In this document: piece after piece, positions 1 to 4,733 of the stretch
How positions within the stretch are numbered: position 1 is the stretch's first letter
Layout of the letters: each line of letters opens with the position of its first letter
Virus record (IMG/VR): IMGVR_UViG_2548876695_000014
Source: a virus
Taxonomy: Duplodnaviria; Heunggongvirae; Uroviricota; Caudoviricetes
Direction: 5' to 3' (one strand)
DNA length: 4,733 bases
Position numbers and translations under genes: made by a program
Notes under the pieces: generated by a model
What the model saw: the letters and a program-made list of their open reading frames with translations, nothing else
Database searches by the model: none
What the model was told of the DNA's origin: nothing

Positions 1-167
1 CAGGTAGGCAGCATTAATAACCGCCTGTGCCAGATCGCGTTTCTCAAACTTTCCTTTTTCCGGTTAACGTGACATACCAATAACTCTTGTCGAAAAAGCC
101 AGCAAGTTGAAAGACCGGTATTAATAACCACCAGCGAATTTATTGCGCTGCTGTATATTACGGACAC

Positions 168-190
168 AAAAAAACCACCTTCCGGTGGCT
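168..190 (-). terminator. Intrinsic terminator about 100 nt downstream of the antirepressor-like gene
   Basis: On the minus-strand RNA: stem CCACC / GGUGG (plus 175-179 and 184-188) with loop GGAA, extendable by two flanking pairs, followed directly by a 7-U tract (plus A-run 168-174). Confidence 0.45.
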
Positions 191-287
191 TCCTTGTGCG
201 AAAAAAACTTGCGTTTCGCCTCGCGATACAGCTTTGCGAAGCATACAGGAATTGAAGCAGTTTATGTGCAAAAATGCAAGAACTTTT

Positions 288-869
288 TTAAAGCTGCATC
301 AACCTTTCCACCAGTTTATCTCTGCGAACAACAAACCAACCATTGGCTCTCGCCAGTTCCAGCCATGACTCAAGGGAAATAACAATATCATCATCCCGTA
401 ACTGAATTGTGGAAACAGTGACACCGCCTCTCTGATAACAGAGAACTCGCGTGTCGTAACTTTTCTGGCATGAAACTGGCGCTGACGGATCCTTTTGTCT
501 GAAATAGCAGTCTTCCAGCTTTTCGAACACATCCCACGCCTGATCGGTTTCCAGCATTTTGGCATGACGGGCTGCTCCGCGTTCTGTCCAGAGGATGAGG
601 GAGCGGGCTTTCGGGGAAATTTGTAACCCTCTTAAAGATGGTTGCAAATTTTGTGAGTAGTTTAAAGCTACCCGCAAATTTTTCAGGGCATCGCCAGCCA
701 CTTTGAAAAAATGCTTTCCTTCAATAAAGCGCTCAGCATTTCTGGCGTAGTTATTTTGAATGTTCTTAACTCCAGCACCGTACAACTGCGCCAAAAGTTC
801 GGTGGTAATAACAGGAATCTGGTTATGGGTGATCGGGGAGAGAGTTTCAATAGAAATTTGAGTTGTCAT
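288..869 (-). CDS. Antirepressor-like DNA-binding protein, 193 aa (ORF6N/Rha-type N-terminal domain suspected)
   Basis: Full ORF from ATG 869..867 to TAA 290..288; AGGG Shine-Dalgarno 7 nt upstream. N-terminal region (...VITTELLAQLYG...NAERFIEGKHFFKV...LILWTERGAARHAKMLETDQAWDVFEKLEDCYF) matches my memory of phage antirepressor N-terminal domains. Family assignment not verified by search. Confidence 0.6.
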   Translation of the reverse strand: MTTQISIETLSPITHNQIPVITTELLAQLYGAGVKNIQNNYARNAERFIEGKHFFKVAGDALKNLRVALNYSQNLQPSLRGLQISPKARSLILWTERGAARHAKMLETDQAWDVFEKLEDCYFRQKDPSAPVSCQKSYDTRVLCYQRGGVTVSTIQLRDDDIVISLESWLELARANGWFVVRRDKLVERLMQL

Positions 870-910
870 AATGACGCCCTCTGGTGGTTTCTAAACCATC
901 ACCACCGTCA

Positions 911-921
911 GGTTCCTAATC
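911..921 (+). repeat. GGTTCCTAATC motif, copy 1
   Basis: Exact 11-mer, identical to the copy at 1077-1087; sits in the loop of a CACCACC/GGTGGTG hairpin. Confidence 0.6.
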
Positions 922-942
922 ATCGGGTGGTGAGACGTACAG

Positions 943-952
943 GGTTAGGAAC
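943..952 (-). repeat. Inverted copy of the same motif (GTTCCTAACC read on the minus strand)
   Basis: Plus 943-952 is GGTTAGGAAC, the reverse complement of GTTCCTAACC; differs from the direct copies at one position (T to C). Confidence 0.55.
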
Positions 953-1030
953 TACCGGGAAACCAACCGGCGAGCTTTTCAGCTCCCCCATACGCCCCAC
1001 CATAATTCAGATGTGCGCGTGCATACGACA

Positions 1031-1054
1031 ATAAAAAACACGCTCGCGGCGTGT
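1031..1054 (-). terminator. tR'-like intrinsic terminator downstream of the Q-like gene
   Basis: On the minus-strand RNA: stem ACACGC / GCGUGU (plus 1038-1043 and 1049-1054), 5-nt loop, then a U tract (plus A-run 1033-1038). About 80 nt downstream of the predicted start site of the 1117-1146 promoter. Confidence 0.5.
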
Positions 1055-1076
1055 GTCTGTCGCGGTCTCTATCCGG

Positions 1077-1087
1077 GGTTCCTAATC
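1077..1087 (+). repeat. GGTTCCTAATC motif, copy 2
   Basis: Exact 11-mer, flanked by CCGGG and CCCG; lies inside the short leader between the late-type promoter and its terminator. Confidence 0.6.
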
Positions 1088-1116
1088 CCGACGCCAGATT
1101 TTGCTGGCGCGTGAGG

Positions 1117-1146
1117 AATATAGCCCCGGATAACAGATTGAGTCAA
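1117..1146 (-). promoter_or_regulatory. Strong sigma70-type promoter directly after the Q-like stop codon (pR'-like late promoter candidate)
   Basis: On the minus strand: -35 TTGACT (plus 1141-1146, overlapping the TGA stop), 18-nt spacer, -10 TATATT (plus 1117-1122); predicted start near plus 1110-1112. The first 20 nt of the transcript can form a CGCCAG/CUGGCG hairpin (plus 1092-1109). Confidence 0.5.
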
Positions 1147-1697
1147 CAGACAGTTTTTAAATACCCGGAAGAGAATGCATCACGCATCGGCAGATAGAGC
1201 ATATATTCAGCAAGATTTAGCCATACATCTACCCGACTGCAGCACGTCCGAAAACACCACTCAGGGTGTGCATCATTTAGCAATTCAGCCATTTTGCGCT
1301 TACTCATCCCCCGCCCTTCATATCTTTGCCGGAGGATACAAATCAATCCTGGGTGTTCTGCCAGCACTTCACTAATCACCCGATCAATGCATAACGCCTC
1401 TGCATCAGTACAATGCACCAGCCAGCTTTTTTGCTTGCCGTTGATCATATCCCGCAAAAAAGCCTCAAGTTCAGGTTTGTCCAAACCTGCTTTTTTCATC
1501 CTCCGGAGCGCCTCGTTAATTGCCGTTTTTGTCAGCTTTTTAGAGGTCAGCAACTGGTTGAACATATTTCCCGTCTTACCGCCGCCAATATACGACCAGC
1601 GCCCCCACATGCGCAGTTTTCCCTGAATCCAGACACTTTCCAGCGTGGTGAGACGAAGGTGCTCTCCGCTTTTTCCTGTGTTCGTTGGGTAAATCAT
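1143..1697 (-). CDS. Q-like late-gene antiterminator candidate, 184 aa (positional call; family unverified)
   Basis: ATG at 1697..1695 overlaps the upstream TGA in an ATGA junction; GGAG/AGGA Shine-Dalgarno 9 nt upstream. The 224-aa track ORF is an in-frame extension back into the upstream gene. It is the last gene of the nin-like module and is followed at once by a promoter and terminator, as Q is in lambdoid phages. It contains a Cys/His cluster (HC-x6-C ... HPEWC-x3-CC). It does not resemble the lambda Q sequence as I recall it. Confidence 0.5.
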   Translation of the reverse strand: MIYPTNTGKSGEHLRLTTLESVWIQGKLRMWGRWSYIGGGKTGNMFNQLLTSKKLTKTAINEALRRMKKAGLDKPELEAFLRDMINGKQKSWLVHCTDAEALCIDRVISEVLAEHPGLICILRQRYEGRGMSKRKMAELLNDAHPEWCFRTCCSRVDVWLNLAEYMLYLPMRDAFSSGYLKTVC

Positions 1698-2925: not shown

Positions 2926-2978
2926 CAAACGAAGGTCGGTTTAGTGGAGGAATCGGCTAAAACTTGATCTGTTAAAGT

Positions 2979-3004
2979 AAAAAACCCGCCGAAGCGGGTT
3001 TTTT
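2979..3004. terminator. Bidirectional intrinsic terminator ending the AT-rich operon
   Basis: GC stem CCCGC / GCGGG (2985-2989 and 2994-2998) with loop CGAA, flanked by a 6-A run (2979-2984) and a 6-T run (2999-3004), so it is followed by a U tract on either strand. It lies 6 nt past the stop of the 130-aa gene. Confidence 0.7.
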
Positions 3005-3009
3005 GTATA

Positions 3010-4635: not shown

Positions 4636-4733
4636 TTACTCCTCAGGTTCGTAGGCTACGAAGACAGCGACCTCCGTCTGGCCGGTTCGGATTCGTACCT
4701 CGCAGAGGTCTTTCCTCGTTACCAGTGCCGTCA
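4636..4733 (-). CDS. 3' end of a gene entering from the right edge (C-terminal 31 codons only); product unknown
   Basis: Minus-strand frame open to the window edge, ending TAA 4638..4636; hand translation ...TALVTRKDLCEVRIRTGQTEVAVFVAYEPEE. Composition is more protein-like than the other open frames here. Too short for the ORF track. Confidence 0.3.
   Translation of the reverse strand, partial: TALVTRKDLCEVRIRTGQTEVAVFVAYEPEE

Follow-up and report, generated by a model that had tools for sequence, protein, structure and literature searches.

The window analysed here, a stretch of phage DNA of 4,733 nucleotides in which all genes lie on the minus strand, raises the question of what the short, repetitive sequence in front of the gene at 288-869 contributes to the control of that gene. 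On the plus strand, GGTGGT is found at 883-888 and 926-931 and ACCACC at 901-906, and in the sense of the RNA the leader runs CACCACC (932-926), GGUGGUG (907-901) and ACCACC (888-883), followed by AGAGGG and the AUG at 869. GGTGGT is frequent in the window as a whole (six copies against 1.65 expected; 1 of 200 shuffles reached six). The motif GGTTCCTAA occurs on the plus strand at 911-919 and 1077-1085, and as AGTTCCTAA on the minus strand at 945-953.

A sequence-only reading had proposed that ACCACC at 901-906 pairs with either of two GGTGGT partners, giving an attenuator-like leader that couples translation or termination to a bound factor. The hexamers are present and the two stems are mutually exclusive, the GGTGGTG placed at 927-933 actually lying at 926-932, an offset of one nucleotide, and the motif GGTTCCTAA(T) at 911-920 does fall within the loop of the 901-932 hairpin, as had been described. 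The strongest partner of CACCACC was omitted, namely the 5' arm of a C4-type RNA, with which it forms part of a closing stem of 17 bp. Here, we argue that the segment is very likely the place where a C4-type antisense RNA gene meets the leader of the gene repressed by this RNA, control probably being exerted by translational occlusion and by decoy sites. The view of a regulatory leader, with a trans-acting factor binding beside the Shine-Dalgarno sequence of the 288-869 gene, is upheld. The stretch 883-933 consists of four parts, being the last 8 nt of C4 (933-926), the target site a2 (920-911), a G-rich spacer (906-899) and the target site b2 (892-884), and the RNA from 933 to 867 reads UCACCACC-CGAUG-AUUAGGAACC-UGAC-GGUGGUGA-UGGUUU-AGAAACCACC-AGAGGGCGUCAUU-AUG. 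The features are collected in Table 1.

Table 1. Features of the cassette and of the gene behind it (positions in the window).
Feature	Position	Strand	Basis and details
Sigma-70-type cassette promoter	1117..1146	-	-35 TTGACT 1146-1141, 18-nt spacer, -10 TATATT 1122-1117; 10/12 hexamer matches
IsrK-like short RNA (a1b1 decoy and intrinsic terminator)	1033..1110	-	Rfam isrK RF01394, c4-a1b1 RF03163, terminator scan
C4-type antisense RNA gene	926..1003	-	Rfam C4 RF01695, MFE fold, covariation; ends inferred from annotated P1 C4
UCACCACC, last 8 nt of the C4 3' strand, also 5' arm of hairpin A	926..933	-	
a2 target site AUUAGGAACC ('motif copy 1' of the sequence-only reading)	911..920	-	Complementarity to a', covariation, same position as annotated P1 a2
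Spacer GGUGGUGA between a2 and b2	899..906	-	Pairs with 933-926 (hairpin A) or, via 906-901, with 888-883 (hairpin B)
b2 target site AGAAACCAC	884..892	-	Core complementary to b' loop; 3' half also 3' arm of hairpin B
Shine-Dalgarno GAGGG (881-877) and start codon AUG (869-867) of the ORF6N gene	867..881	-	
Regulated gene, ORF6N-domain protein of 193 aa	288..869	-	Pfam ORF6N; orthologue of Gifsy-1 AnrP

An unannotated C4 and IsrK cassette

The Rfam scan of the window returned three RNA families on the minus strand, all above their gathering thresholds and in the correct order and strand: c4-a1b1 (RF03163) at 1123-1070, which passes narrowly with 47.8 bits against 46.7, isrK (RF01394) at 1110-1033 with 69.4 bits against 50, and C4 (RF01695) at 1007-923, a full-length match with 67.0 bits against 45. 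The same scan gave no riboswitch or leader family at threshold. ARAGORN found no tRNA or tmRNA, and a remnant of either was rejected as the source of the GGTTCCTAATC motif. The cassette is an unannotated member of the known P1 C4 and Salmonella IsrK-type system with a specificity of its own (UUAGGAAC / GAAACCA); on the identical E. coli chromosome, the PGAP annotation contains no RNA gene between the Q gene and the ORF6N gene.

The IsrK-like RNA has, besides its score, two 5' hairpins, a Rho-independent terminator (stem 1054-1038 followed by a U-run, at the end of the isrK match) and a position downstream of a prophage Q gene, the stop codon of which overlaps the cassette promoter. It carries the site a1 (AUUAGGAACC, 1086-1077) in the loop of its second hairpin and the site b1 (AGAGACCGC) at 1070-1062. 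The fold of the C4 domain comprises a closing stem (1002-986 with 944-928, 17 bp), a second hairpin (985-972) and a third hairpin (971-954), which presents the b' loop UUGGUUUC at 966-959, and a single-stranded joint contains a' (AGUUCCUAA, 953-945). The G at 1001 is the position aligned with the 5' end of P1 C4, and the 3' end A928-C927-C926, resembling the ACC of a tRNA 3' end, is the same A-C-C in P1. This canonical fold has a minimum free energy (MFE) of -42.9 kcal/mol and is the MFE structure in 34 of 34 relatives; the isrK-C4 tandem is present in all 20 relatives scanned. In a 26-sequence alignment the C4 stems are 97-100% paired overall, with 12 compensatory pairs in the closing stem (99.5% paired, seven compensatory pairs) and the second hairpin (100% paired, five of five).

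The product of the regulated gene matches Pfam ORF6N (E = 4e-19) and is 53% identical over its full length to STM2616/AnrP of the Salmonella prophage Gifsy-1 (E = 5e-67); as an orthologue of AnrP it is a putative antirepressor-like protein. Its upstream neighbour is a DUF1133/antiterminator-Q gene (1697-1143, minus strand). A lambdoid prophage of E. coli 99E2750 and 2000-3039 matches the window with 100% identity; in it, Q and the cassette are followed by ORF6N and then by esterase, holin, lysozyme and terminase. Two sites elsewhere in the window resemble terminators: GGAAGCCACCGGAAGGTGGTTTTTTTGTG (160-195, minus strand), as judged from the letters themselves, has the look of an intrinsic terminator for the ORF6N gene, although the scan listed this site on the plus strand only, and AAAAAACCCGCCGAAGCGGGTTTTTT (2975-3005) is a symmetric, bidirectional terminator-like hairpin between gene blocks, with several sub-threshold Rfam matches. 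The end of the window (4636-4733) falls inside the toxin gene hokD according to the RefSeq annotation of the identical chromosome, and a related locus (L079) has a sok RNA match.

The setting of the cassette varies among phages. It follows two unrelated Q proteins with no detectable similarity (window 1143-1697 and L001 827-1504), the Q protein of Gifsy-1 being unrelated to that of the window, and in VT2-Sakai (L002 1484-1775) it lies in the nin region before ant-roi. Thus, the cassette behaves as a mobile module with its own promoter, which aligns with P1c4. The same isrK-C4-ORF6N cassette is found in a record named 'Actinobacillus phage vB_Apl-pPE4' (L003, PP818812.1), which shares 85.8% identity over 869 nt with the prophage segment of E. 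coli, an unexpected finding for the stated host. Tandem C4 modules about 656 nt apart occur in L171 (9712-11104, three copies) and L132 (4679-5418, two copies), each module with its own a/b specificity and followed by a short gene starting MATVPT or similar.

Predicted target and decoy sites of the C4 RNA

The three motif copies seen in the sequence belong to a C4-type antisense system, as its sites a1 (1086-1077), a' (953-945, inverted) and a2 (920-911), and are not protein sites. The a2 core UUAGGAAC (919-912) is complementary to a' GUUCCUAA (952-945) over 8 bp (-9.8 kcal/mol), and the b2 core GAAACCA (891-885) to the b' loop UGGUUUC (965-959) over 7 bp (-8.1 kcal/mol), so that both target duplexes are short. 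A pattern search for further C4 targets nearby, over 16.7 kb of the host prophage, returned only a1, a' and a2 of the cassette itself.

Relatives were gathered in three ways, through the ORF6N protein, through phage records and with a loose C4 pattern. In the 26-sequence alignment the a'/a2 helix is 98.9% paired and five of its eight pairs have changed on both sides; for the structure of C4 together with a'/a2, none of 500 shuffles reached the observed values and slid controls gave 33-48%. The b'/b2 helix was judged by duplex analysis of each sequence in place of column counts on the MAFFT alignment, where it is about 51% paired because b-types of unequal length are not alignable. In each of 34 distinct sequences, a' is complementary to a site that lies 6-9 nt behind the end of C4 and b' to one at 32-39 nt, with the start codon at 51-58; complementarity of a1 and b1 to a' and b', at fixed offsets, holds for all relatives and for every type. 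The a and b specificities differ among phages and reassort freely. A first set of relatives yielded 8 a-types and 11 or more b-types; the 66 distinct junctions had 23 a-types and 46 b-types, all of them cognate. The mean duplex energy for cognate pairs is -9.0 kcal/mol (a) and -11.1 kcal/mol (b), and for non-cognate ones -2.4 and -4.2 kcal/mol.

Three GGTTCCTAA-like copies within 175 bp, two direct and one inverted, could also be read as DNA operators for a sequence-specific protein, with the hairpins being incidental, and the copies of a protein operator would likewise change together between phages. This reading is hardly tenable, since two independent sets of motifs (a and b) reassort freely and the targets always run 5'-a-b-3' and C4 always 5'-b'-a'-3', as is required by antiparallel RNA pairing. 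The inverted copies, moreover, coincide exactly with the joint and the loop that a covarying RNA fold leaves unpaired. Differences between the b copies preserve G-U pairs, b1 (GAGACCG) and b2 (GAAACCA) both pairing with the same b' by means of G-U wobbles, which favours RNA pairing over a DNA motif. RNA-level compensatory mutants, furthermore, work in Gifsy-1, where the mutant pairs G28/C162 and G31/C159 (Hershko-Shalev et al., 2016; PMC4825925) map exactly onto the a1:a' duplex.

Competing helices at the junction

The helix between the end of C4 and the spacer, here called hairpin A, pairs UCACCACC at 933-926 with GGUGGUGA at 906-899 and holds a2 in a loop of 19 nt; it competes with the C4 closing stem for the same 3' strand. 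In the alignment 99.5% of its cells are paired and three of its eight pairs have changed on both sides (13 cells), values reached by none of 500 shuffles, while slid controls gave 26-74%; the compensatory changes trace to few independent events per alignment. Two of the compensatory columns have a G-U wobble in the C4 closing stem and true double changes in hairpin A, which indicates that the spacer is more than a copy of the C4 5' arm. Essentially every one of the 66 distinct junctions, which comprise 17 arm sequences, has hairpin A, with a mean of 8.4 bp and -13.8 kcal/mol (z = -3.3 against shuffled spacers); taken singly, 59 of the 66 reach p <= 0.05 in this comparison. Of the seven that do not, at least three (L097, L120 and L198) are parsing errors. 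P1 has the hairpin as well, formed by CCUGCCACC with GGUAGCAGG.

The other helix, hairpin B, pairs GGUGGU (906-901) with ACCACC (888-883) and is followed by AGAGGGCG. It was rejected as a family-wide helix, as it has no covariation and is 69.9% paired in the family alignment, equal to shuffles. It is found where b2 is GAAACCACC, and in a shifted register in Gifsy-1, while in other b-types the spacer pairs with different downstream partners. Covariation, the check suggested along with the sequence-only reading, is seen in hairpin A, with its conservation and three compensatory pairs, and not in hairpin B.

It could be asked whether the arrangement is a chance complementarity of a G/C-rich hexamer repeat without function. 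When 935-860 is folded alone, the hairpin with the motif in its loop forms with z = -1.30 (21 of 200 shuffles), a single-sequence value that was set aside as uninformative by itself. The segment from the spacer to the AUG is more structured than shuffles across b-types (mean z about -1.5), and in the window's own type it reaches z of about -0.8 to -1.1. These values and the lack of covariation in hairpin B would fit with chance, but a helix that has compensatory changes and recurs with so many arm sequences makes this explanation highly improbable for the junction. Chance is excluded for hairpin A and may account for hairpin B. The original observation is confirmed as real, though not significant on a single sequence, and the relatives support one hairpin of the two.

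Which helix is favoured depends in the predictions on how much of the transcript is included. With 75 more upstream bases, the 17-bp stem takes CACCACC and the spacer shifts to the ACCACC by the Shine-Dalgarno sequence (z = -3.43). In the predicted MFE structure of the full transcript (1110-850), a1/b1 are paired in cis with a'/b', C4 is open and hairpin A is formed, and the partition function gives 0.90 for hairpin A and 0.01 for the C4 stem. When the IsrK part is removed, these predictions become 0.98 for the C4 stem and 0.95 for hairpin B, and in a leader cut after C4 hairpin B has a predicted probability of 0.97. When either fold is forced, the two energies differ by no more than about 7 kcal/mol in 29 of the 31 full-length relatives (largest gap 11 kcal/mol), and these small gaps match the two alternative conformers of the long Gifsy-1 transcript seen on native gels (PMC4825925). 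The predicted accessibility of the Shine-Dalgarno sequence is 0.39-0.42 whichever hairpin forms, and that of a2 and b2 is likewise nearly unchanged. Since accessibility is predicted to be equal in all folds, the hairpins may be read as reporters of the state of C4 and not as a translation gate; on the modelled folds, the choice of hairpin is not predicted to gate translation itself.

An alternative is a cis-acting transcription attenuator, in which hairpin A would be the terminator, the C4 closing stem (or hairpin B) the anti-terminator, and the nascent fold would decide on readthrough to ORF6N. The stems exclude each other, as such a device needs, nine of 63 junctions have at least 5 U in the 8 nt after hairpin A (e.g., GUUUUU in L085 and L132), and Weinberg et al. 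noted such overlaps in some C4 loci, so that attenuation may hold in a minority of lineages. In the window, however, no terminator U-tract follows either stem (behind hairpin A the tail is UGGUUUAG, with 4 U of 8), the loop has 19 nt and a terminator scan of 870-935 was negative; 54 of the 63 relatives, Gifsy-1 included, are also without a U-tract. In addition, a transcriptional fusion of Gifsy-1 anrP is active while the translational fusion is silent, which points to translational control. Hairpin A was consequently discarded as a terminator, and this alternative is unlikely. The sequence-only reading thus falls short as a self-contained attenuator; the coupling to a bound factor survives in the form of a factor that is most likely an RNA, the C4 encoded 3-80 nt upstream on the same transcript, and the coupling to termination does not. 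If the bound factor is a C4-type RNA, control would be by translational occlusion and not by classical attenuation. Attenuators of the trp type share mutually exclusive leader helices with the window, but have a terminator hairpin with a U-tract and a leader peptide, neither of which is present here as a U-tract or as a conserved peptide, and the signal in the window would be a trans-acting RNA.

A more far-reaching interpretation, which we put forward as tentative, is that three conserved partners (the C4 5' arm, the spacer and, indirectly through the spacer, the b2 flank) exclude one another in pairing with the 3' strand of the C4 closing stem and that, together with the pairing of a1/b1 in cis, this may make the read-through transcript a bistable switch. 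One fold would be the processing substrate that yields the repressor RNA, and the other would silence C4 in cis and display a2 in a loop, so that the ratio of the folds could set the threshold between immunity and induction; in lineages with a U-tract, hairpin A might double as an attenuator. Only one point is modestly new and worth following up, namely the three-way competition for the 3' strand of C4 and its conservation. No description of hairpin A was found in the literature covered, which did not extend to the P1 papers of 1990-95, and it may already be described.

Proposed control of the ORF6N gene and known systems

The immI regions of P1 and P7, with the c4 antisense RNA and the genes icd and ant, are reportedly the subject of work by Citron and Schuster in 1990. 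In P1, C4 is cut from a precursor and RNase P makes its 5' end, giving an RNA of 77 nt. The record NC_005856 has a1, b1, the 77-nt C4 RNA, a2 and b2 annotated in immI. As in the window, the order is promoter, a1, b1, C4, a2, b2 at the ribosome binding site and gene; a2 lies a few nucleotides after the C4 3' end, at a position equivalent to that of the window's a2, the same Rfam families are matched, and the promoter hexamers (annotated P1c4) and the C4 ends align. In both systems specificity resides in short complementary sites that differ between phages, those of the window (UUAGGAAC / GAAACCA) being different from those of P1. The window further differs from P1 in that it has no icd-like first gene, that the first regulated gene encodes an ORF6N protein in place of Ant1/Ant2, that an intrinsic terminator between a1b1 and C4 would produce a free short RNA, and that the cassette belongs to a lambdoid prophage, directly after the Q gene and with no C1 operator evident.

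By analogy with P1 and with the Gifsy-1 experiments, a constitutive promoter (1146-1117) would give mostly a short IsrK-like RNA that is stopped at the terminator (1054-1038), while read-through transcripts would include the C4 domain (1003-926) and the ORF6N mRNA. The C4 domain is expected to fold into a tRNA-acceptor-like structure and to be excised, after which the freed C4 would pair a' with a2 (920-911) and b' with b2 (892-884). The resulting b'/b2 duplex, which would end 2 nt before the Shine-Dalgarno sequence GAGGG, may block the 30S subunit, and no ORF6N protein, the AnrP-like antirepressor, would be made. The decoys a1/b1 on the short upstream RNA could titrate C4 and so lift the block. 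When the closing stem of C4 is open, for instance through pairing of a1/b1 with a'/b' in cis, the spacer GGUGGUGA would pair with the C4 3' strand as hairpin A, and when C4 is folded or removed it would pair with the 3' half of b2 as hairpin B. Both hairpins would thus arise as side effects of the way in which the parts are laid out. The cassette thus probably controls an antirepressor-like protein and hence prophage induction.

The isrK - orf45/STnc1160 - anrP locus of Gifsy-1 in Salmonella (Hershko-Shalev et al., 2016; PMC4825925) is the orthologous cassette, with 80.7% DNA identity over 291 nt and again located after a Q gene, and the cassettes of Gifsy-1 isrK-anrP, of the VT2-Sakai segment upstream of ant and of P1 immI are collinear with that of the window, promoter hexamers included. 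The 5' end of Gifsy-1 IsrK corresponds to position 1110 of the window, and the Gifsy-1 specificities (UUGGCGU / AUCACCG) differ from those of the window. A stable processed RNA, STnc1160, was found downstream of IsrK, and AnrP induces Gifsy-1 and antQ expression (PMC4825925). The predicted fold of the window with a1/b1 paired in cis with a'/b' resembles 'structure A' of that study. The folding there covered nt 1-180, a stretch that excludes a2, the spacer and b2, and the paper makes no mention of C4 or P1 (PMC4825925).

In the model of the Gifsy-1 authors, translation of the upstream orf45 is coupled to that of anrP, and a tagged orf45 product was detected (PMC4825925). Applied to the window, an ORF from the AUG at 1003 would be translated through the segment and its ribosomes would open the ORF6N start. 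The stop codon of Gifsy-1 orf45 overlaps the anrP start (AUGA) and start-codon mutations reduce anrP induction, both of which are in line with coupling. The ORF of the window, however, comprises 27 codons and its stop (922-920) lies 51 nt short of the ORF6N AUG, the corresponding ORFs of 26 relatives have 10-36 codons or are open, and loop indels of 1-4 nt break the frame. An orf45-like coding reading was not retained, given an ORF conserved neither in length nor in frame; compensatory pairs run through the whole sequence, which evolves in the manner of a structured RNA. The mutations made in Gifsy-1 also affect the 5' arm of C4 and the equivalent of the P1 RNase P cut, and taken together we consider coupling to be very unlikely in the window, where translational occlusion by C4 is the preferred reading.

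The published Gifsy-1 'orf45' coincides with the C4 RNA, STnc1160 (L001 1643-1780, corresponding to window 1003-867). The start-codon mutations A107C and UG120-121AA sit at the equivalent of the P1 RNase P cut and in the C4 5' arm, so that their effects could be RNA-structural rather than translational.

The CI RNA of phage P4 acts by premature transcription termination and presumably belongs to a sequence family other than that of C4. It resembles C4 in being an immunity RNA derived from the transcript under its own control, with complementary sites up- and downstream. The P4 CI RNA with seqA/seqC was named as a structural analogue of the Gifsy-1 locus (PMC4825925). In two viral contigs (L065 1071-1154 and L067 1068-1151), sRNA-Xcc1 (RF02221) and not C4 is found directly before the ORF6N gene, with a C4 copy further upstream. 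Because its loop and the leader by the Shine-Dalgarno sequence change together (CUACUG/CAGUAG in L065, UUUCGA/UCGAAA in L067), the comparison suggests that sRNA-Xcc1 may be a C4-like cis-encoded antisense regulator.

The conceptual gain is modest, and lies in tying the Salmonella IsrK locus to the C4 paradigm of P1 and in indicating a conserved alternative helix at the junction of C4 and its target; if the bistable reading were true, the Gifsy-1 'orf45' results would be recast as C4 biology. For annotation the gain is practical, as PGAP leaves three RNA elements unmarked. In pathogenic E. coli the cassette occupies a prophage, with the late-gene antiterminator Q on one side and the lysis genes on the other, and it is also common in Shiga-toxin phages. 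A further practical gain is that its many a/b types provide a catalogue of RNA immunity specificities that are mutually orthogonal.
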